Positions 9,123 to 21,184 of a stretch of DNA of 64,000 nucleotides are shown here, in pieces. The notes under the pieces are model-generated. The model did not search any database and had not been told where the DNA came from. It saw nothing but the letters and a program-made list of their open reading frames with translations. A program made the translations under genes and the position numbers. Origin of the DNA: an uncultured Poribacteria bacterium (GTDB lineage: Bacteria; Poribacteria; WGA-4E; WGA-3G). The stretch lies in NCBI GenBank assembly GCA_951813565.1, contig OX638351.1, forward strand, positions 5,056,001 to 5,120,000, in the 5' to 3' direction. How positions within the stretch are numbered: the stretch's first letter is position 1; each line of letters begins with the position of its first letter.

Positions 9123-10280
9123 TCAGAGACTGCCTGCCGAGGCAGGTGTTACGTCTCCTCCTGAAAAGGTTGACGCCCCAACCTTATGAATATTTATAGC
9201 GGCGTTTATATCGCGGTCATGAGAGATTTTGCAGTGATGACAATACCAATCGCGCACACTCAAATTAAAGAACATCTGGATTTGTCCGCAGGCGTGGCAA
9301 ACTTTGCTTGTGGGTGTCCATCTGTCAATCTGCTTGACATGCTTGCATCGTTTTTGTGCTTGCCATTTGATTTTCAGCATGAAATCTCCAAAGGCGTAGT
9401 CAGAGACTTTTCGTCCCCAGAGGCGTTTCATGCCATCAAGGTTCAAGTCTTCAAAGTAGCAGACATCAAACTTTCGGACAAGTTCAAGTGCGAGTTTCCA
9501 GTGATGGTCTTCACGTTGCCGATTGATTTTCCTGTGTACCCGTGCAAGGTCTTTCCTCACACGCTCGCGATTGTTGCTGCCTTTTTGCTTCCGAGACAAC
9601 GCACGACTCGCACGTTTTATCAGTTTAGCAGCAGATTTATAGAATTCAGGAGATTGATATTTTGTGCCATCGGAACAGGTGAGGAAGTGCTTGAGTCCAA
9701 AGTCAAACCCTGCTGTCCTACCAGTCTTAGGTGCAGGCTCAAGTCCCTCAGTGTCTGTTGTGATAGTGATATACCAATCCCCTACAAAGTCTTTCTTAAC
9801 GGTAACCTGTTTGATGTTGCCTTCAATAGGTCGGCTATACCAGAATCGGTACCAGCGTCTATTGATACGGATTTTCGCAACGGGGCAGCCATCTATTTTG
9901 TCAATAGTTTCTATTTTCACTTGGCTACCATCAAAAGTCATAGATTTATATTTATACCGACTTCTAAATTTAGGTGGACGCTTGGCTCTACCTTCAAAGA
10001 AGTTTTGCCAACCTCTGTCAACACGTTGGATACATTCTTGCAAACACCAAGAATACGGAACAGTCCAGTGTTGATATTTAGCAAGTCGTTTCAGTTTCGT
10101 CAGATGTTTAATCATTCTGTAGCAGCTTGGACGCTTATAGTCTTCGCAATGTCCGTAGATGCGATAGTGACGCTGCCACAACGCAACAAAATGGTTATGG
10201 ACATGTGCAATGATATGCAAATCTTTTTGCATAAGACGGTTTCTTTTGTGTTCTTGTCCCTTGTATTTGTAGGTTCGCAT
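9123..10280 (-). CDS. tnpB: RNA-guided endonuclease TnpB
   Basis: MRTYKYK N-terminus; RuvC motifs GFDFGLKHF, FEDLNL, HDRDINAAINI; CHAC/CHHC zinc finger. Confidence 0.92.
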   Translation of the reverse strand: MRTYKYKGQEHKRNRLMQKDLHIIAHVHNHFVALWQRHYRIYGHCEDYKRPSCYRMIKHLTKLKRLAKYQHWTVPYSWCLQECIQRVDRGWQNFFEGRAKRPPKFRSRYKYKSMTFDGSQVKIETIDKIDGCPVAKIRINRRWYRFWYSRPIEGNIKQVTVKKDFVGDWYITITTDTEGLEPAPKTGRTAGFDFGLKHFLTCSDGTKYQSPEFYKSAAKLIKRASRALSRKQKGSNNRERVRKDLARVHRKINRQREDHHWKLALELVRKFDVCYFEDLNLDGMKRLWGRKVSDYAFGDFMLKIKWQAQKRCKHVKQIDRWTPTSKVCHACGQIQMFFNLSVRDWYCHHCKISHDRDINAAINIHKVGASTFSGGDVTPASAGSL

Positions 10281-10475: not shown

Positions 10476-13244
10476 ATGAACGATTTTAAACAAATACTGT
10501 CAACTATTAGCCGTCCGTTTCAGCAAGAAATCCGAAAAGGCTGCCAAGACGATGTTGTCATAAACGGGATGGGTGCTTATGTGGATCTCTGGGTAGGACA
10601 TGCAAAGGCACTTGAACTCACCGCTGATGAAAAACAGTTTATCAATCAAATCGCTGCACTTTTTGAAAACTATACCGGTATGTCGCCGACAGAACGCCAA
10701 CAGGCTATTCAAAATGCCTCAGAACAGATTAATTCTGCACGCTCCGGTAAGCCAATAATAGATAAAACACCTACAACAAGCAACGCTGAGACGCAACAGT
10801 CCCACACGACAGAGTTAGGGGTGAACGTAGGGAACAAAAAGCCTATCCCCGCACCCTCAAAACAAGTTGAGAACTTACCACTATTTCAAGACGCCGGCGT
10901 TTCTCAGGGGACAACTGCCTCTTCAGAAAATACCCCAATTCCTGAAAAAACGACACCAAGTAACCTCAATCAGACTCGTAACGCTTCCCTATTCCCGCCT
11001 GATACCACCCCTGTGATGCGTTCTGAAGATGTTGAAGACCCAGAGGAAATACCTGTCATACTTGGGGATACACCTGTTTCAACAGATGTTGAGGAACTTG
11101 AATTTCTCAATAATCCGCTGCAATATCTGAAAGGGATTGGACCGCGCCGTGCTGAAATTTTAGCAGAAGAAATCGAAATACGAACAGTGGGTGGATTGTT
11201 AGAATATTATCCACGTGACTACATTGATAGATCCAAAACCGTAGAAATTTACAATGTCGGACGAACAGAAGACGGTGAACCAGAAACGATTCAGGGAAGG
11301 GTTGTTAATCATGTAACAACACCGCCAGTGGCGAAAGGTCGCAAGAGCATTGGTAAGGTCTCAATTTACGATGGCACTGGGGTTGCCGTGTTAGTCAACT
11401 TTGGGCGACGTATCGGCTATATCAAGTCTATACTTCCTACTGATACAGAGGTAGTTATCAGTGGAAAATTCACTCGCCGCTACAATGAAATCCAAACAAC
11501 AGACTATGAATTTGAGGTATTTGACGAAGAAAACCTGATTCACACGAAACGTATCGTGCCGAAATATCCACTCACAGCAAAACTCACAGCGAAAATGCTA
11601 CGGACAGCAGTTCGCAACGCATTGAATGAACATGGCGACAGCATTCCCGAAATTTTACCACTCACACTCCGCCAAAAACACCAGTTGATTGACAGACAGC
11701 AGGCAATTAACGAGATCCATTTTCCCTCTTCAGAAGCACATCAGCAAGCGGCACAGCGGCGGCTTGCGTTCGATGAATTTTTCCTACTCAGTCTCGGAAT
11801 GGAGATGCGTAAAGACAATAGAACTTCACAAAACGGCATCCAATTTGAGATTGAAAGTGCGCTGCAGGACAGCAATTCGCTTCTGAGGAAATTCGTGAGT
11901 TCGTTATCGTTTAAGTTAACCAATGCACAAAAAAGGGTTTTCAATGAGATTCGAGAAGATATGCAAAGTCCGCGGGTGATGAACCGATTGATTCAGGGAG
12001 ATGTCGGTTCGGGTAAAACCGCTGTCGCTGCAATGGCGCTGCTATGTGCGATTGAGAACGGATATCAAGGTGCTTTAATGGTGCCGACCGAAATCCTCGC
12101 AGAGCAACACTATCATAATCTTTCAACACTATTAACACCGCTTAGTGTGAAGGTTGTACTTCTCAAAAGCGACCTACCAAAGTCTGAACGGGAAGAAACT
12201 TTGACTGCAATAACAGATGGCTCTGCCAACCTCATTATTGGCACACAGGCACTGATACAGGAAGGCGTAGATTTTCACAAACTTGGACTCGTTATCATTG
12301 ATGAACAGCACCGTTTCGGAGTAATGCAACGCGCAACACTCAGAGGCAAAGCAAAATCATCTGCATCACAAGAAAATGATGCCGAAGCGCAGCTATCGCC
12401 CGATGTTCTTGTTATGACTGCCACCCCAATTCCGAGAACCCTTTCCCTGACTATTTACGGTGATTTAAATGTATCGGTAATTGATGAGATGCCACCGGGA
12501 AGACAGAAAATTGAAACCCAATGGATAAAAGAGAAAGACAGAACGGAATTCTACGCAAAACTTGAAAAAGAGGTGCACCGTGGGAAACAAGCTTACGTCG
12601 TCTATCCGCTCGTAGAAGAATCAGAAAAACTTGAGGAATTAAAAGCCGCCACAAGTATGGCAGAACATATCCAGAAAGATGTCTTTCCACATCTACGTGT
12701 TGGACTATTGCACGGACAGATGAAGTCTATAGAGAAGCAGGAAGTTATGTCAAGTTTCAATGCGTGTGAGATCGATATCTTAGTTGCAACGACGGTGATT
12801 GAGGTAGGTATTGATGTGCCGAATGCAACGCTGATGGTAATTGAAAACGCGGAACGGTTCGGTTTAGCGCAGTTACATCAGTTGCGTGGCAGGGTCGGCA
12901 GAGGCAGCGATAAATCATTTTGCTACCTTGTTGCAACGCCAAAAACAGATGAGGCATACCGCCGAATTCAGGTGATGGTGCGTTCTAATAACGGATTTGA
13001 AATTGCTGAAGAAGATTTGAATATCCGCGGTCCGGGTGAATTCTTCGGCACACGGCAGTCAGGAATACCCAAATTCAAAATCGCTAATATCATCAGTGAT
13101 GCTGCACTTTTGGAAACAGCGAAAAAAGAGGCGATGCTATTGATAAAAGACGATCCACAGTTAAATAACACTGAACATCAACTGATGAAACGGATGTTAA
13201 ATGCACATTGGAAAGGACATCTGGAGATCGCATCTGTTGGTTAG
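10476..13244 (+). CDS. recG: ATP-dependent DNA helicase RecG with long N-terminal extension
   Basis: LKGIGP, RLAFDE, MNRLIQGDVGSGKT, IDEQHRFG, MTATPIPRTL, QLHQLRGRVGRG, RGPGEFFGTRQSG. Confidence 0.96.
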   Translation: MNDFKQILSTISRPFQQEIRKGCQDDVVINGMGAYVDLWVGHAKALELTADEKQFINQIAALFENYTGMSPTERQQAIQNASEQINSARSGKPIIDKTPTTSNAETQQSHTTELGVNVGNKKPIPAPSKQVENLPLFQDAGVSQGTTASSENTPIPEKTTPSNLNQTRNASLFPPDTTPVMRSEDVEDPEEIPVILGDTPVSTDVEELEFLNNPLQYLKGIGPRRAEILAEEIEIRTVGGLLEYYPRDYIDRSKTVEIYNVGRTEDGEPETIQGRVVNHVTTPPVAKGRKSIGKVSIYDGTGVAVLVNFGRRIGYIKSILPTDTEVVISGKFTRRYNEIQTTDYEFEVFDEENLIHTKRIVPKYPLTAKLTAKMLRTAVRNALNEHGDSIPEILPLTLRQKHQLIDRQQAINEIHFPSSEAHQQAAQRRLAFDEFFLLSLGMEMRKDNRTSQNGIQFEIESALQDSNSLLRKFVSSLSFKLTNAQKRVFNEIREDMQSPRVMNRLIQGDVGSGKTAVAAMALLCAIENGYQGALMVPTEILAEQHYHNLSTLLTPLSVKVVLLKSDLPKSEREETLTAITDGSANLIIGTQALIQEGVDFHKLGLVIIDEQHRFGVMQRATLRGKAKSSASQENDAEAQLSPDVLVMTATPIPRTLSLTIYGDLNVSVIDEMPPGRQKIETQWIKEKDRTEFYAKLEKEVHRGKQAYVVYPLVEESEKLEELKAATSMAEHIQKDVFPHLRVGLLHGQMKSIEKQEVMSSFNACEIDILVATTVIEVGIDVPNATLMVIENAERFGLAQLHQLRGRVGRGSDKSFCYLVATPKTDEAYRRIQVMVRSNNGFEIAEEDLNIRGPGEFFGTRQSGIPKFKIANIISDAALLETAKKEAMLLIKDDPQLNNTEHQLMKRMLNAHWKGHLEIASVG

Positions 13245-14742: not shown

Positions 14743-14764
14743 TAATTTCCAATTGCAACCCTTT

Positions 14765-14788
14765 GCTGGCGAGGTTTCCTAACCTCGC
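14765..14788 (+). repeat. REP flanking the RAYT gene
   Basis: GCTGGCGAGGTTTCCTAACCTCGC; inverted copy at 15279-15304, further copies at 51930 and 56948. Confidence 0.8.
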
Positions 14789-14793
14789 TATTT

Positions 14794-15258
14794 TCACCAT
14801 CCCATCTCGTATTTACACCGCCAATACGGATACTCCCGGGCAGTTTTTACCAACCCTTTTCTCACAGGATTCAAGTAACAATAGCGGATCATCTTATTCA
14901 ATGCCGTCTCATCCCGAACCGCCCAATCCCTATACTCGGCTTGCCAGAACCTCCCACACCGTGATAGATGTTTATTGATTTCACGTGCTGTAAACAGTTT
15001 CAGTGAGTGCAAAACCTTTGGAAGTGTTTGTCCGATCCCAAGTTCAATTATGCTATGGACATGGTCGGGCATAATCATGATACAAATCCACCGAATCCGG
15101 TGTTTCGTTTCTAACCAATCAAATGTTTCAAAGATAATTGAGGCGACGTTGTTGTTTGCAAGAAGCGGCAGCCGCTGGTGTGTATTGATTATAATATGGT
15201 AATAGGCACCAGATATTGAAGTCCGGCCTTTACGCAAGTCATGATTTGAAAATTTCAT
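14794..15258 (-). CDS. REP-associated tyrosine transposase (RAYT, Y1 HUH)
   Basis: YYHIIINT, MPDHVH (HUH), LKLFTAR, FWQAEYRD, Y..LNPVRKGLV; flanked by inverted REPs; GGAGG RBS. Confidence 0.88.
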   Translation of the reverse strand: MKFSNHDLRKGRTSISGAYYHIIINTHQRLPLLANNNVASIIFETFDWLETKHRIRWICIMIMPDHVHSIIELGIGQTLPKVLHSLKLFTAREINKHLSRCGRFWQAEYRDWAVRDETALNKMIRYCYLNPVRKGLVKTAREYPYWRCKYEMGW

Positions 15259-15278
15259 GATATTTTCCTCCATCTGCT

Positions 15279-15304
15279 TGGCGAGGTTAGGAAACCTCGC
15301 CAGC
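15279..15304 (-). repeat. REP flanking the RAYT gene (inverted copy)
   Basis: TGGCGAGGTTAGGAAACCTCGCCAGC. Confidence 0.8.
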
Positions 15305-15478
15305 AGCGTGTTATACCAAATTATTCTAAATCATTGGGGCGGGGTCCCACTGAATGCCACAAAGACATTCACAGTGTTGATTTGATGCCCACCCGTGTTT
15401 TCGGTAGTGAAATAATAAAAATCTCGTTAATTTTGGTATGATACGAAGGCCTCATGGAAATTGCATAAACCCTAATTA

Positions 15479-15527
15479 TTACTGCGAAACTGTAATCAAC
15501 CGATACAACTGCAGCACAGTAACAGAA
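15479..15527 (-). repeat. att-like copy 3: diverged duplicate of the 3' end of gene 20216..21184
   Basis: Translates SVTVLQLYRLITVSQ*, versus SVTVPQLYRLITASE* at the gene end. Confidence 0.8.
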
Positions 15528-15567
15528 GACGCCTGGAGGCTAATGTAGACTTTCGGTCAACGGATAC

Positions 15568-16611
15568 CTATTTCTTTAGTGCCCCCCACCTGACTTTTTT
15601 TTTGCCCTGTGGTGAGACAGACAGCACATCATCACTTATCCAATCCAGTGTCCCATCCGTGCCCGGATGGTTTGTTAACCGCGTTATCTCACCTGTCCAA
15701 ATATGATACTTATAGATATTGCACGGTGGGTATACAAAACCGCGCGGCAGCGGTTTGTCCAAAGGGATGCCGACATACGCACCGAAAACGATTGATTCAC
15801 CGTCCTCCATCCAGTCTATACCGTATCCTTCCCAGTCTTTCGGTATTCGGAGTTGCCTGATGTTCCCGCCGTTCCGATCACAAACGATATACCGGAACGC
15901 TTTGTAGACAGGAAAGTTCCCGTCATTCGGTATCGACACGTATTTATACTCTTTTTGTTGAAATACGATCTGCTTACCATCGGGCGACCAGCGCGTTCTC
16001 GATCTATAAGTGGCGAATTCTCCTGGGCCGGGGGCAGGGAGAAGTGGGCGCGGGTTATGACCATCTGCTCCCATAATCCAGATCGTGCTATTGACGCCGA
16101 TTGTCTGTCCCAATGCAAACACAATATGCTTACCATCCGGCGACCAATCACATTGGATACCCCAGATATCCGATATTTGTTCCATCTTCCCCGTCTGAAT
16201 ATTCAGCACGTAGATGCCGCCTTTCAACTCGTCGTTTTTTCGATAAGTCCTACCAAAAACAATAGATGTGCCATCTGGTGAAAATCTGCCGCCGTTGATA
16301 GAACTCCCATCGTTTTCAGTGAGTTGCCGAATGTTTGTGCCATCTGCATTCATCAAGAAAAGAACGTAATTTGCGTTTCTCTTCGCGCGTCTCTTAAACA
16401 GAATCTGTTGACCGTCCGACGACCAAGTGGGGCAACACGGTCTCAACGTTTCAGATTCGGTCAGTGGCGTGATATTGCTGCCATCATCGTCCATAACATA
16501 GATACCGTAGAGACCACCATCATGTCGTGAACTAAAAACGATTTTTGCATCTGCCGCTGTTGACAAAAGCAGTAGCAGCAGACAGAGTAGGCCGGCTTTT
16601 TGGAGGCACAT
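15568..16611 (-). CDS. Secreted TolB-like (PD40) beta-propeller with C-terminal WG.LK tail
   Basis: Signal peptide; repeated WSPDGK.I.F; tail LSVSPQGKKKVRWGALKK. Confidence 0.85.
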   Translation of the reverse strand: MCLQKAGLLCLLLLLLSTAADAKIVFSSRHDGGLYGIYVMDDDGSNITPLTESETLRPCCPTWSSDGQQILFKRRAKRNANYVLFLMNADGTNIRQLTENDGSSINGGRFSPDGTSIVFGRTYRKNDELKGGIYVLNIQTGKMEQISDIWGIQCDWSPDGKHIVFALGQTIGVNSTIWIMGADGHNPRPLLPAPGPGEFATYRSRTRWSPDGKQIVFQQKEYKYVSIPNDGNFPVYKAFRYIVCDRNGGNIRQLRIPKDWEGYGIDWMEDGESIVFGAYVGIPLDKPLPRGFVYPPCNIYKYHIWTGEITRLTNHPGTDGTLDWISDDVLSVSPQGKKKVRWGALKK

Positions 16612-16667
16612 GGTTATTCTCCTTGTAGGGAATGGCAGGGGAATTTATCCCTGCCGTTACATTGGAA

Positions 16668-17511
16668 TTATGGATTATCTACATCCGTAAATTCCTGAAC
16701 ACCGGTATCCGCTTCCCAGTGGTCTTCCTCATGCTGACCAGCTATTTCACCATTCACTTGGAGGTGGGTGTGCGCATCAAAATAAAGCACTTCCTCATCT
16801 CCGATTTGTCTGCCGAGTGAATATTCGACCACCATAGAATCGACGGAATCAGAATGCGTGTCCCCAGACGGAAGATCGTCAAAGACAATTGGTTGGTCAA
16901 GAGGGGGGTCTCTTTTGATCCATTCCTGGGCCCCAGGCCCATTTGCAAGGGTGGTGAACTTCTGCTGTCGGAACCAGGCGGCGGCATCAAGTTCTATATT
17001 GGTGCCGTTATATGCTGAGGCAGAGGCACTCATGACGAAAGACGATCCATCAAAGTAGTGGGCTGAGACTTCTGCATAGCCGTACACACCGGTATTTTCT
17101 CCGATACCTGATGTTACTACCGGTTGGTAGAGTGTTAGGTAATAGGACTCGGTGTCTTCAGAAGGATCTCCATCATTTTCTCGCCAGGCTTCTGCGCGGA
17201 TCTCATACTCTCTACCTTTAACGGTTCCATCATTCAAGTTGTGCCATAAATTAAAATGGGCACTCGTTTTGACTTCATTACCAGAAAAAGTCTGTCCTAT
17301 CAATTCTTCGCCAAAATAAATGTCTATCTGGTCATAGGGTTCATTGGTTTCAACGGACACAGATAAAGATGTACCGCCATCACTTGAAGTATATCCAGAG
17401 GCACTCATCTCCACAATCTCAATATCAGCTTTACTACTATTGACAATACTAACTTAGCAATAGGGAACATATAATTGCTACTGCAATGCCGATTGATTTC
17501 AATCTTAACAT
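16668..17511 (-). pseudogene. Secreted hypothetical protein, paralog of 19050..19850, with a +1 frameshift in the signal peptide
   Basis: ATG at 17511 gives MLRLKSIGIAVAIICSLLLS*; dropping one base near 17454 continues VSIVNSSKADIEIVEMSASG into the 248-aa ORF. Confidence 0.7.
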
Positions 17512-17697
17512 TTTTCTCTCCTTGTAAGGTAATATGCTTTGATAGCATATCGGTTATTTATCGGGTTCCCTATCCTTGTTCGGTAGACCTTCCACCGCTT
17601 AGTAAAGATTTGGGCACCCTTACAACTAAACTATGATTCTTTACATAGTATTAGAAAGGGCACCTATATTGAAATCAATGTTTTGGCTATAACCAAG

Positions 17698-17726
17698 ATT
17701 ATACAACAAATTCCGAACCTATGCAA
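17698..17726 (-). promoter_or_regulatory. Sigma70-type promoter of cassette 1 (identical copy at 20038-20066)
   Basis: TTGCAT-N17-TATAAT on the minus strand. Confidence 0.7.
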
Positions 17727-17876
17727 AATGCTTAACATGGATTTCCAAAACAACGATATATGATACCCTTCATAATGTTAAGACACAGTATTAAGTTGCA
17801 AAGGGGGCATTCCACAAAAAAAAATGAAATTAGGAAAATAAACAGATTCTAATATGCACTTCTGTTTTCAAAAACT

Positions 17877-17925
17877 TTATTCGGAGGCTGTTATCAACCG
17901 ATACAACTGCGGCACGGTAACAGAA
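17877..17925 (-). repeat. att-like copy 2: exact duplicate of the last 49 bp of gene 20216..21184
   Basis: TTATTCGGAGGCTGTTATCAACCGATACAACTGCGGCACGGTAACAGAA is identical to 20216-20264. Confidence 0.9.
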
Positions 17926-17965
17926 GACGCCTGGAGGCTAATGTAGACTTTCGGTCAACGGATAC

Positions 17966-18985
17966 CTATTTCTTTAGCGTTCCCCACGTTACTTTTTTTT
18001 TGCCTTGCGGGGTAGCAGAAAGCACATCATCGCTGATCCAATCCAACGAAGGATTCAACCATGTTTGTTCTGATAACCGGGTGATGCGTCCTGTAGCAAT
18101 ATTATATTTATAGAGATGGTAAGGATGCACCAAACCTTCTACCGGAACATTTAATTCTACTTCCCTTGCACTGAATAGAATGGATTTACCGTTATCCATC
18201 CAGTCAAGCGCGCTCGGGAAATACGTCTTCGGTATCAGCAGTTGCTTGGATTGATGTGTGAATAGATCGTAAATAAAATAACGGTTTGCCTGTGGAATGA
18301 AACCGACATTTGGATTAAATTTTGATTCATACTGGCCATATAGTATCTGTTTTCCGTTTGGAGACCATCTGGCATAGCCACCCCGGTTAATCAATACCTC
18401 CCCCAGCGGTAGTTGTGGTAGCAATTCGCGCGGATGTCCGCCATCGGCATCCATGATCCATAGATTACTTCCTGTCTTTCCCAAAACCGGAATATCAGAA
18501 AAAACAATCTGCTTGCCGTCGGGAGACCAGTCGGGAAAGTTTACACCGAAATCGGCGATCTTTTTTATCTTACCACTAACCAAGTCAATAACATTGACAC
18601 TTCGTTTGAGTTCGTTATCTATTCTCTCACTTCTACCAAACAGAACAGACGTGCCATCCGGAGAAAATACGGGTTTCGAATCCTTCGCCCCTCGTGTCAA
18701 GAGACGTTCATTTGTGCCATCTGCGTTTATGACAACAATCTGTCTCCGATCCCAATTACCTGGTTTCAGAAATCTTGCAAAAACAATATGTTTACCATCG
18801 GGGGACCAGCGCGTGGCAGTAGGGTATCGCGTATCAATGAGTATCGTGGTGATCCCTGTGCCATCATCCTCCATCACGGAGATGCTCTTAACTTCTTCCG
18901 CTATGTATGATACAACAACGATCTTTGCGGTTACCGCTGTGGCAATCAGCAGAAGCAAGCAGAGTGTGAATACCAGTATTCGCAT
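17966..18985 (-). CDS. Secreted TolB-like (PD40) beta-propeller with C-terminal TWG.LK tail
   Basis: AAGGAG RBS before MRILVFTL; WSPDGK repeats; tail LSATPQGKKKVTWGTLKK. Confidence 0.85.
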   Translation of the reverse strand: MRILVFTLCLLLLIATAVTAKIVVVSYIAEEVKSISVMEDDGTGITTILIDTRYPTATRWSPDGKHIVFARFLKPGNWDRRQIVVINADGTNERLLTRGAKDSKPVFSPDGTSVLFGRSERIDNELKRSVNVIDLVSGKIKKIADFGVNFPDWSPDGKQIVFSDIPVLGKTGSNLWIMDADGGHPRELLPQLPLGEVLINRGGYARWSPNGKQILYGQYESKFNPNVGFIPQANRYFIYDLFTHQSKQLLIPKTYFPSALDWMDNGKSILFSAREVELNVPVEGLVHPYHLYKYNIATGRITRLSEQTWLNPSLDWISDDVLSATPQGKKKVTWGTLKK

Positions 18986-19049
18986 AATAACACTCCTTAT
19001 ACTTTGTGGAAGGGGCTCTAAAACCCCTTCCAAATAAATGCCGAAAAGA

Positions 19050-19850
19050 TCAATTGTGTTCGCAATCTAAGGTATTTATAAGTAAATAATCGTCGGTTCC
19101 ATTGTTACCGCCCACCTTGAGACGGACGTATGCTTCACCAGTGTATTCCGTACCCTGCCAACCACCCGACAGTGTTATACCTTGAGAACCTGGATCACGA
19201 AAGGATCTTTTTCCATCCTCACCCCTTATTTCGCCAGCATTAGGATTCCAATCTTTATTTTCTTTTCCTGCTATATCGGGGAAAGAAGCTTTATACTCAG
19301 TCCCCACATCAACCGTGCCATCGGCTTTTTCTCCATTATGATATGCGGTGGCCCAGTAGTCAAATGACATATACCCGGACGCATAGTCATAAGTATGCTT
19401 GCTAATTTGCACATATCCATCCACGAAGAGAAGGTGTTGGACACCATCAGGGGTAGATTTGGAGATCGGCGCATAGATTGTCAATTCGTAGGAGTCATTG
19501 TCAGAGAGATAATTCGCGTTCTCGTCTATATGCCAAGCGACTGCCTTTATTGTGTAATCAGCACCTGATATATCACCTGACAAGGTGGGGTAGCACGTCG
19601 CGTTGGTCTCGTTCCCCGATAGCAGACTCGTATATTCATATACGACGTTCCCATCTTTATCCTCTACAGACCAGTCCACATAGTTAATGCCTTCATCTGT
19701 TGTTATATACGCGTAGCAATAGGCACCATCTCCCCAATCATCAGCTCCGGCTGCTGTCATCCAAGTAATCTCAATAGCATGACTATTGATAACAAAGCAC
19801 AGGGAACAGAGCATCGCCACTGCCATGCCGATTGATTTCAATCTTAACAT
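19050..19850 (-). CDS. Secreted hypothetical protein (beta-rich, possibly two Ig-like domains)
   Basis: AAGGAG RBS; signal peptide MLRLKSIGMAVAMLCSLCFVINSHA; paralog at 16668-17511. Confidence 0.8.
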   Translation of the reverse strand: MLRLKSIGMAVAMLCSLCFVINSHAIEITWMTAAGADDWGDGAYCYAYITTDEGINYVDWSVEDKDGNVVYEYTSLLSGNETNATCYPTLSGDISGADYTIKAVAWHIDENANYLSDNDSYELTIYAPISKSTPDGVQHLLFVDGYVQISKHTYDYASGYMSFDYWATAYHNGEKADGTVDVGTEYKASFPDIAGKENKDWNPNAGEIRGEDGKRSFRDPGSQGITLSGGWQGTEYTGEAYVRLKVGGNNGTDDYLLINTLDCEHN

Positions 19851-20215
19851 TTTTCTCTCCTTGTAAGGTAATATGCTTTTGTAGCATATCGTAGTGTTTA
19901 TCGGGTTCCCTATCCTTGTTCGGTAGACCTTCCACCGCTTAGTAAAGATTTGGGCACCCTTACAACTAAACTATGATTCTTTACATAGTATTAGAAAGGG
20001 CACCTATATTGAAATCAATGTTTTGGCTATAACCAAGATTATACAACAAATTCCGAACCTATGCAAAATGCTTAACATGGATTTCCAAAACAACGATATA
20101 TGATACCCTTCATAATGTTAAGACACAGTATTAAGTTGCAAAGGGGGCATTCCACAAAAAAAATGAAATTAGGAAAATAAACAGATTCTAATATGCACTT
20201 CTGTTTTCAAAAACT

Positions 20216-21184
20216 TTATTCGGAGGCTGTTATCAACCGATACAACTGCGGCACGGTAACAGAAAAATCGCCAGAAATGTGGTAACTCTTCCCACCATCC
20301 TTGACAGTGCGAATAAGAATTGTCTTTTTAGGGCGGTGATAGTAATGCGAATCGGTGGGTTTACCTTCCTCCTGAAAATCTGGAAAATCAATCAAATCGA
20401 AATTAGCGGTGGTGAAATGCCGAATTTCTTCACCTCGTTGTGTAGCAATGTTCCGCGCCATAGATAGGCTTTTGAGGTAGACCTCAGGTCCCATCACAGC
20501 AGAACCTAAGTTCAGGAAAACGCCACCTTCCAATTGCGAAACAGTGTGCACAAATCGGAGAAAATCCTCCCCCGTTGTCCAACCGATAGCGGCATAATCC
20601 GCAGCAGGATGCTGATCGGTTATATCGTAGCCAATACCTTTGTGAACGGTTATCGGCACACCTAATCGGAACGCTGCAGCAAATATGCTCACATCACGGT
20701 GTGGAAAAGAGATGTCCTCTTCTCCTTCTTGGATCAATCTGCCAATTGCCTCTCCAAAACCGATTTTATCTTTGTAGCCTCTAACGATAGCTTCGTTCAG
20801 ATAGCGTCCCGTTTCTTCCCAATTGCCAAACTTTCCATCCTTTATATACATCTCCACATCTTCAAGTGTTGCGCCGATGTGTGCCATTTCAAAATCGTGG
20901 ATAGCACATGCACCATTAGTTGCTATATGTGTTATTATTCCGCGTTCCATCAGATCAATGATGTAACGGGAGTTGCCACGCCGCATCACGTGCGCACCCA
21001 TCATCCAGATAACCTGTTTCTTGTTTTGGCGTGCTTGGACAATACGTTCAGCAACGATGTTTAGCCGTTCATTTTGATATGGAGGCGTTTCAGCATCTAA
21101 GGTATAGATGTCTGCCACGGTCATCTTGTGTTGGCGTTCAGAGAGCGGCAAGATTCTAAGGCGAGAGCGATTAAATTGTGACAT
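20216..21184 (-). CDS. Deoxyhypusine-synthase-like fold protein of unknown function
   Basis: MMGAHV, THIATNGACAIHDFE, GVPITVH.GIG.DI...HP, GGVFLNLGSAVMGPEVYLK. Confidence 0.65.
   Translation of the reverse strand: MSQFNRSRLRILPLSERQHKMTVADIYTLDAETPPYQNERLNIVAERIVQARQNKKQVIWMMGAHVMRRGNSRYIIDLMERGIITHIATNGACAIHDFEMAHIGATLEDVEMYIKDGKFGNWEETGRYLNEAIVRGYKDKIGFGEAIGRLIQEGEEDISFPHRDVSIFAAAFRLGVPITVHKGIGYDITDQHPAADYAAIGWTTGEDFLRFVHTVSQLEGGVFLNLGSAVMGPEVYLKSLSMARNIATQRGEEIRHFTTANFDLIDFPDFQEEGKPTDSHYYHRPKKTILIRTVKDGGKSYHISGDFSVTVPQLYRLITASE

Follow-up and report, generated by a model that had tools for sequence, protein, structure and literature searches.

Integrase-less tandem insertions with displaced gene 3' ends in an uncultured Poribacteria bacterium

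The window analyzed here is a 64,000-nt stretch of DNA from an uncultured Poribacteria bacterium, a sponge symbiont (contig OX638351.1, positions 5,056,001–5,120,000 of the forward strand). It contains a gene of the GSU2086 family (the host gene, window positions 20216–21184) whose 3' end is present three times in direct orientation, with two units encoding secreted and beta-propeller proteins between the copies. This is a real insertion array and not an integron. The data support an insertion of DNA at the host gene with displacement of the native gene end, and the array represents a variant of insertion with long target duplication (ILTD) in which the cargo is restriction-free and the units stack. 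It is probably not the product of an attachment site (att) and its integrase. The array was probably formed by a RecA-type crossover in a carried gene end, followed by stacking, collapse and gene conversion, with no dedicated integrase. The host-gene locus bears on the origin of ILTDs. A duplicated gene end alone is no evidence of an att site. In sponge symbionts a variable repertoire of secreted proteins could spread through such insertions; the cargo is known by sequence and predicted fold.

The genome under study, G000, is a single-contig assembly of 5.43 Mb that is 95% complete; positions with the prefix C1 refer to it, and other positions are those of the window. The comparison set consists of 40 genomes of the genus. 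The host gene was found in 29 of these, and the DNA 3' of it was read in all 29. G006 is a sister species with one unit at the host-gene site. X1, X4, X6, X8 and X9 are short-read contig sets of runs from other studies and belong to the same species as G000.

Structure of the array and states of the site

The last 49 bp of the host gene are found at 20216–20264, 17877–17925 and 15479–15527. The first two copies are identical (49/49) and the outer copy has 41/49 identity; an earlier note on this DNA had described them as identical and diverged, respectively. The two units announced in that note, with spacings of 2339 and 2398 bp and with leaders, hairpins, propeller genes and tails, are also present. 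These three places are the only ones in the genome that match the 49-mer with up to 12 mismatches. In a control of 3000 random genomic 49-mers, which takes in the many dispersed repeats of G000, an exact copy within 5 kb was found for 6 and a copy of at least 41/49 within 5 kb for 29. Gapped alignment extends the repeat to 57 bp, ending at a GGCG microhomology. Over 17557–17925 compared with 19897–20264 the 365-bp leaders differ only by one poly-A indel, and the two 40-bp tails are identical. The homology of repeat plus leader between units is about 414 bp. Each 2.3–2.4-kb unit encodes only a secreted protein (S) and a propeller, and no other mobile element is found inside. The features are as follows; RBS denotes a ribosome-binding site and UTR an untranslated region.

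20216..21184 (-), host gene, GSU2086 family, 322 aa; NF052581 383.7 bits, cut-off 250; Pfam ArgZ-like C-terminal at cut-off
20216..20272 (-), gene-proximal repeat copy, 49 bp exact or 57 bp to GGCG; replaced by a diverged allele in X4, X6 and X8
19851..20215 (-), leader of unit 1, AT-rich (34% GC), with RBS and further conserved hairpins
20067-20038 (-), sigma70-like site in leader 1, a consensus match only
about 19963-20028 (-), covarying hairpin in leader 1
19050..19850 (-), secreted protein S1, 266 aa, N-terminal signal-like helix and two predicted all-beta domains
19007..19032 (-), intergenic hairpin of unit 1, z = -3.3
17966..18985 (-), PD40/TolB-like beta-propeller of unit 1, 339 aa, PF07676; TIGR02800 79.5 bits, cut-off 343
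17926..17965 (-), 40-bp tail of unit 1, a remnant of the module 3' UTR without terminator
17877..17925 (-), middle repeat copy, where the tail is joined to a gene-type end and leader 2; a strain-variable mosaic
17512..17876 (-), leader of unit 2, mostly identical to leader 1; sigma70-like site at 17727-17698
16668..17511 (-), secreted protein S2, frameshift near 17453
16634..16655 (-), intergenic hairpin of unit 2, z = -3.4
15568..16611 (-), PD40/TolB-like beta-propeller of unit 2, 347 aa; TIGR02800 89 bits, cut-off 343
15528..15567 (-), 40-bp tail of unit 2
15479..15527 (-), outer (displaced) gene-end copy, decaying

Some details of the earlier description need to be qualified. Secreted-protein genes are present in both units, but the S2 gene in G000 has a one-base frameshift just after the signal peptide (ATG at 17511). 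This break is common to X1 and X9; X4 does not have it, and X6 lacks it and has another. The genes called TolB-like do contain PD40 repeats but do not encode TolB itself, with both TIGR02800 scores far below the cut-off. The outer copy can be read as an alternative C-terminus, SVTVLQLYRLITVSQ*, but the argument from synonymous changes does not hold: it differs from the gene end by 3 synonymous and 5 non-synonymous base changes (P=0.38), and a Pro residue that is conserved in 31 of 31 host genes is changed to Leu. Because the changes are not significantly synonymous and the invariant Pro is lost, the outer copy in G000 is considered to be decaying.

A comparison of relatives for unit number, as proposed in the same note, reveals sites with 0, 1 and 2 units, and unit number and cargo both vary. 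The 29 genomes show four states of the site: host gene next to the DAO gene (13 genomes), host gene next to recG (7), other genes or rearrangements (7), and a module between repeats (2). In the 13 empty sites of the first kind the host gene is directly followed by the convergent DAO gene, with a spacer of 38–363 bp. The filled sites are those of G000 (two units) and G006 (one unit). That all relatives carry exactly two units, which the note had named as speaking against insertion, is not what is seen; 20 of the 29 genomes with a host gene have no insert.

The G006 unit has a leader that is 89% like that of G000 and shares with it the first 28 tail bases and the ITASE* end. Among 31 host genes, only those of G000 and G006 have the ITASE* C-terminus. 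As cargo, G006 has two propellers and an S protein different from those of G000. The outer copy of G006 encodes SDFSVTVPQLYRLITASV* and is followed by a spacer like that of the empty sites. Compared with the majority codons of relatives this copy has 6 synonymous changes and 1 other (P=0.002), i.e., it is coding-like. The empty sites, the one-unit state in G006, and an outer copy and spacer that match the empty-site sequence thus support the insertion and the displacement of the original 3' end, and here the earlier proposal stands. The host-gene tree places G000 and G006 as sisters (support 0.94), and the simplest reading is a single insertion event in their ancestor. About 25–40 bases of the leader start are kept 3' of the host gene in G013, G051 and G054. 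On another contig of G054 an S gene truncated by an insertion sequence (IS) and a propeller gene are beside the DAO gene, with no copy of the host-gene end; G054 appears to resemble a donor state that is free of the repeat.

The middle junction is covered by contigs of X4, X6 and X8, and both cargo blocks are present in contigs of several studies. An independent metagenome contig runs from unit 1 into the middle repeat at 99.7% identity. The X1 leader contig has a depth of 60.5 compared with 31.8, about twice. An assembly artefact might be suspected, given that the assembly is a single contig, has a one-base frameshift and shows leaders of unequal poly-A length. It is refuted by these contigs and by the occurrence of the same frameshift in X1 and X9.

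The middle repeat also differs between strains. In X4 and X6 the host gene with its repeat copy is a diverged allele (31 and 29 differences, respectively), and X8 has the same diverged gene-proximal copy. The middle copy in X4 is of the G000 type, with 0 differences over 17825–17946, and in both G000 and X4 the allele switch in the middle repeat lies within the first 9 nt. In X6 the middle copy follows the strain's own diverged allele and switches somewhere between 17896 and 17912. The X8 middle copy is of the outer type from at most 17987 down to 17884, with the switch near 17884–17885. The X6 and X8 switch points are derived from contig limits and from the number of differing letters; this number agrees exactly with the known differences (3+3). 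Three strain types thus have three switch points, as is expected of gene conversion. X9 has no cover over 18573–19640 and no contig with the middle junction; one contig is unbroken through the tail (15280–17585) and another begins at the equivalent leader base. This fits a strain with one unit. It is not counted as such here, as the gap is not bridged by any contig.

A decayed copy of the recG 3' end is located 3' of the DAO gene in G014, G017, G023 and G054 (compare window positions 13187–13244). It scores above a shuffle control in 3 of 15 genomes with the DAO gene at the site, plus G054. The DAO gene, which is missing here in 7 genomes, may itself be an insertion with the same footprint that came in from the opposite side.

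Other module loci and other gene ends

The propeller family is matched in 38 of the 40 genus genomes, with 1–20 matches each, and the leader in 25 of the 40, at many loci. Orthologous sites hold different cargo between species, and G000 has no module at several sites that are filled elsewhere. Sixty module loci, several of which are orthologous and not independent, were scanned for a repeat shared between upstream and downstream flanks. A unique repeat is found only at the G006 host-gene site and at none of the 59 others; a general target duplication by the module is not upheld. Five of the 60 loci scored 40 or more, and these represent three dispersed repeats (108–279 copies), one cargo-internal repeat and the G006 host-gene site. 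A 67-bp repeat around a module at C1:4337330 was rejected as being of the dispersed kind.

Up to CAGGC, the 40-bp tail can be aligned with the 3' UTRs of other members of the family. Past this point the family members continue into a terminator-like hairpin, and G000 continues into the GGCG of the host gene, 57 bases before its stop codon. Judged from this alignment, the tail is a truncated ordinary 3' UTR that lost its terminator at the junction, and not an element-specific arm.

The footprint is also present at other gene ends in G000. A scan of 3538 gene ends reveals 17 with a non-coding, non-paralogous copy within 12 kb downstream. In the controls there are 3 upstream copies (P=0.001) and 7 copies for 7117 internal segments (P=0.0002). 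Eight of the 17, including the host-gene site, were judged to be true insertion-duplications. Their inserts are 0.4–2.4 kb in length with unrelated cargo, the repeats are about 48 to 166 bp, and no recognisable integrase is found in the inserts. The nine others were excluded because they are short tandems, CRISPR, dispersed repeats or remnants of motifs or paralogs, or are too short. At gene 5' ends there are also non-coding upstream copies (e.g., C1:1369285, 2862231 and 3661777), with noisy counts (20 upstream vs 16 downstream).

A gene of the PhyH family (C1:1482659–1486500) has three displaced copies of its last 69–91 bases, and this array is a richer example of the same footprint. The cassettes in order are a toxin-antitoxin pair, a 164-aa open reading frame and a second toxin-antitoxin pair. 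Copies of the PhyH gene end are found in 11 of 21 genomes. The cassette order, which differs in G006, and the junction position vary. The remaining sites are as follows.

C1:2106573, 3239093, 3248794, 4905298, 4931918 and 5038150, six further end duplications with 0.4–1.9-kb integrase-less inserts

The host genes at these six sites are hsdM, a 261-aa gene, a 202-aa gene, a permease gene, a TPR gene with a HigB-type insert and an AMP-binding gene. The repeat is present 3' of the AMP-binding gene in 5 of 16 loci and 3' of the permease gene in 2 of 16. Behind C1:3239093 none of 16 loci has the repeat in the 1.5 kb examined, a stretch shorter than the insert.

Formation of the array and alternative explanations

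The footprint without a restriction gene or integrase at eight unrelated gene ends, the three unit states and the strain-specific conversion tracts together favor plain host recombination. A possible series of steps is as follows. A putative donor lineage would have had the module directly 3' of the host gene without a repeat, and G054 looks similar to this. One illegitimate join would then have connected the module 3' UTR, at a C(A/T)GGCG microhomology, to the host-gene position that precedes the stop codon by 57 bp, and the terminator would have been removed. The junction is present in the sequence; the event may have involved a circle or a tandem duplication, or else the distal end of transforming DNA. 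The unit would then have entered an empty chromosome by a RecA-type crossover within the carried gene end, once, in the ancestor of G000 and G006. The observed product, which such a crossover could have given, has the ITASE* replacement end, and its native end is displaced and runs into the native spacer. Subsequently, cargo may have been swapped between the conserved leader and the conserved 3' end of the propeller gene, as the different cargos at this site suggest, and a second cargo allele would have been stacked through the repeat-plus-leader homology. This homology is long, therefore stacking, collapse, cargo swaps and conversion are all possible. Strains now appear to differ by gene-conversion tracts and probably also by unit number.

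G000 encodes RecA, ComEC (C1:3170420) and three DprA homologs (C1:2140987, 2812895 and 2922220). Unequal crossing-over driven by transformation is established in pneumococcus, according to the available portion of PMC3784515, and homology-assisted illegitimate recombination is summarised in the accessible text of PMC2884548.

Several points weigh against formation by host recombination. Homology of about 50–57 bp that is partly diverged is short for RecA. Competence genes known from sequence do not show competence. No empty site, circle or integration event within the species is found among the 15 joints listed, in contigs, which drop rare variants. The switch in G000 and X4 lies in only 9 identical bases, and these adjoin the 10-base window of G006; adjoining windows of 9 and 10 bases would also fit the crossover region of a recombinase that was later blurred by conversion. 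At the PhyH gene most of the repeat copies begin close to one base (-69 to -91), which is also expected of an att site. The eight sites were chosen from the 17 matches by eye, and the scan covered G000 alone with no control genome. The donor-like state of G054 spans two contigs whose linkage is presumed. The SMC tree, which is poorly resolved and includes one non-orthologous row, does not recover G000 and G006 as sisters.

The closest published counterparts are ILTDs. The screen criteria in the available text of PMC2853133 are an insert below 20 kb, a target duplication above 30 bp of variable length, no other mobile element, an empty site in a relative, and restriction and modification genes within the inserted DNA. 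That text, which cites H. pylori for the first description, includes two H. influenzae cases with 46-bp repeats overlapping gene 3' ends. It places most cases in naturally competent species and describes amplification through the repeats (PMC2853133). The ILTDs in that paper concern restriction-modification genes, whose DNA breakage is named as the cause; the paper itself states that release and re-invasion have no experimental evidence behind them (PMC2853133). The host-gene locus is similar in having a 49/57-bp duplication, a 2.3–2.4-kb insert, no mobile element and empty sites in 13 genomes. It differs in that the cargo contains no restriction-modification genes but encodes secreted proteins at this site and toxin-antitoxin or other genes at other gene ends. 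The G000 repeat is also confined to the coding 3' end, which it restores, the units stack, and the copies come from different alleles. The footprint itself is published for restriction-modification genes; the restriction-free cargo, the eight sites in one genome and the strain-level crossover evidence are new. In the literature covered, which leaves out most subscription journals, no paper was found on these Poribacteria modules or their footprint.

Two other systems have related properties. In rhs C-terminal displacement, as far as it is described in the available text of PMC2935791, arrays form by homologous recombination, a circle with a fragment of the target gene is proposed, the old end is shunted downstream, and there is no integrase. 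There, however, the variable functional tip of the cargo gene itself is displaced (PMC2935791), whereas here the anchor is an unrelated conserved gene, only some 16 codons of which are displaced, and whole transcription units are inserted. Effector-immunity arrays of the type VI secretion system in V. cholerae are also without evidence of an integrase and are explained by homology-facilitated illegitimate recombination and allele replacement, according to the accessible portion of PMC5361080. Their layout of one first gene with one to several partner genes resembles S with 1–4 propellers (PMC5361080). The old effector is deleted in those arrays and no anchor duplication is described in that portion of the text (PMC5361080); S1 and S2 have no recognisable toxin domain.

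The earlier note had attributed the array to one att site and a recombinase encoded in trans. In this explanation the units are non-autonomous elements flanked by att sites, similar to cis-mobilizable elements (CIMEs), integrated in tandem by an enzyme that is now distant or lost, with junctions blurred by conversion. The replacement end, the displaced end and the empty site all agree with it, as do the adjoining crossover windows (9 bp in G000, 10 bp in G006). Tandems of integrase-less elements at gene ends are documented in the available parts of PMC5704250 and PMC3146451. CIME and integrative mobilizable element accretion and additive flexible genomic islands share with the host-gene locus the direct repeats and a strain-variable number and nature of elements (PMC5704250, PMC3146451, PMC4898812, available text). 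Those systems rely on a site-specific integrase family with a fixed att core and are mostly found at tRNA or ssrA genes, to judge from the same portions (PMC5704250, PMC3146451, PMC4898812). G000, by contrast, does not show a fixed crossover or inverted arms, there are eight unrelated targets, and no enzyme, core or autonomous relative was found.

The note had looked to a recombinase linked to the site. The sole tyrosine recombinase found in G000 is unlinked, located 300 kb from the host gene (C1:4771354–4771977). It is 207 aa in length with the catalytic domain only and is below every NCBIfam cut-off (TIGR02249 score 38, cut-off 265). Similar short tyrosine recombinases are present in most of the genus and are about 35–52 kb from the host gene in 8 relatives, which would suit an enzyme in trans. 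No full-length XerC/D was found in G000. Large serine recombinases (PF07508) and IS110 were considered and gave no match in the 95%-complete genome; three distant genes with a PF00239 resolvase domain are present. No integrase is found in or beside any unit, and no integrase or autonomous element is present at the host-gene site in the 29 genomes. A search of metagenome and genome contigs for the tail motif yields only two contigs of this species and G006, and viral contigs have no match to the repeat core or the propeller.

The junctions also lack the expected signals. For an attC-like or HUH-type hairpin at the repeats, the junction regions fold no better than shuffled sequences (z of -0.3, 0.0 and +0.75), and inverted arms at the junction score 7 of 11, the chance level. 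Across the eight sites the mean motif score is 12.0, compared with 12.0 for the null, with no inverted arms beyond chance. The lack of a common motif at eight junctions means that several different lost integrases would be needed. With no repeat at the 59 other module loci, a plain UTR remnant as the tail, a strain-variable switch point and no motif shared with the seven further sites, the att proposal is unlikely, and formation by host recombination is preferred. A relation of the site to dif or the replication terminus was also considered and rejected: the cumulative GC-skew maximum is inside the window, but from 3.4 Mb onward the profile is almost flat.

Integrons are cassette arrays variable in order and content, with intI/attI and attC. 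The comparison with an integron that the note had drawn fails, as no integron integrase and no attC hairpins are found; each unit also has its own promoter-like leader.

A third explanation is an insertion initiated by a break or an enzyme, in which a staggered or double-strand cut, made by a restriction enzyme or by the HUH transposase of a REP-associated tyrosine transposase (RAYT) gene, is repaired with copying of 50–100 bp and capture of the module. The sizes agree with those of ILTDs, for which DNA breakage is the authors' hypothesis in the available text (PMC2853133), and hsdM is among the other footprint sites. A RAYT gene (14757–15312, NF047646 over cut-off) is located in the window between two inverted REPs, 170–700 bp outside the outer repeat. 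This block is missing at the site in G006, which nevertheless has the same junction, and the units have no restriction gene. Target duplication would also be expected to leave two identical copies, but those of G006 show synonymous differences of the kind found between two functional alleles. The explanation is quite improbable. RNA-mediated insertion was considered and rejected as well, the two reverse transcriptases of G000 being CRISPR-linked and Drt4: one is beside a cas1-like gene and a CRISPR array (C1:3988991–3996100), and the other is a Drt4 antiviral reverse transcriptase that scores over cut-off (C1:811749–813284). An IS605-family OrfB/TnpB-like gene is located beyond recG (9123–10280).

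An old tandem duplication in place, with divergence of cargo and concerted evolution of leaders, is very improbable and largely refuted: S1 and S2 and the two propellers are paralogous, and the AMP-binding-gene locus does look like a plain duplication that starts about 100 bp inside the upstream gene, but each cargo gene is closer to other loci or genomes than to its neighbor (79% to G048 vs 44.5%), and relatives have empty sites or, in one species, a single unit with a third cargo.

A broader proposal, which is tentative and somewhat doubtful, is that Poribacteria have an integrase-free cassette system. Conserved gene ends would serve as landing pads with end duplications of 50–150 bp, and reorderable arrays at no fewer than eight sites would reassort secreted binding proteins, Ig-like and propeller, and defence genes from a lineage-specific library, by DNA uptake with an expanded DprA set or by a non-specific 207-aa recombinase.

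Cargo proteins and leader

The two G000 propellers are 44.5% identical to each other, and a propeller of G048 shares 79% identity with that of unit 2. For the unit-2 cargo DNA, a module at a different locus in G051 reaches 75% identity. Neither cargo gene has a match to restriction-modification families.

S1 has no Pfam or NCBIfam match. The AF2 model of S1 displays two all-beta domains with a pLDDT of 79. Residues 24–126 are Ig/FN3-like (VIA Z 12.1, rmsd 2.3, 95 aligned); the second domain was barely tested. Foldseek gave arrestin matches only, with TM below 0.3, and the ESM Atlas gave Ig-like leads under 0.9. There are 12 homologs, and the one with a named source is from Ca. Poribacteria. 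The S2 N-terminal domain is related to S1 (33% over 91 aa), and its C-terminal domain is of another type. The S proteins P0011 and P0012 have a signal peptide like that of the unit-1 S protein and a C-terminal domain like that of the unit-2 S protein. S alleles thus shuffle domains at a conserved Y-x-P hinge. No family match to a toxin domain is found in S1 or S2, and the predicted fold consists of two beta domains. The predicted fold and the variability suggest that the cargo is probably a variable surface-binding repertoire.

One S gene with 1–4 propeller genes is a common layout in the genus. At C1:1980725–1985288 one S gene is followed by three propeller genes, with 186-bp direct repeats between them. 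In an Rfam search with 12 leader loci there is one chance match only, and the leader has no credible Rfam match. The leader hairpin (19963–20028 and 12 other leaders) shows many two-sided changes and a variable loop, and is followed by near-invariant hairpins.

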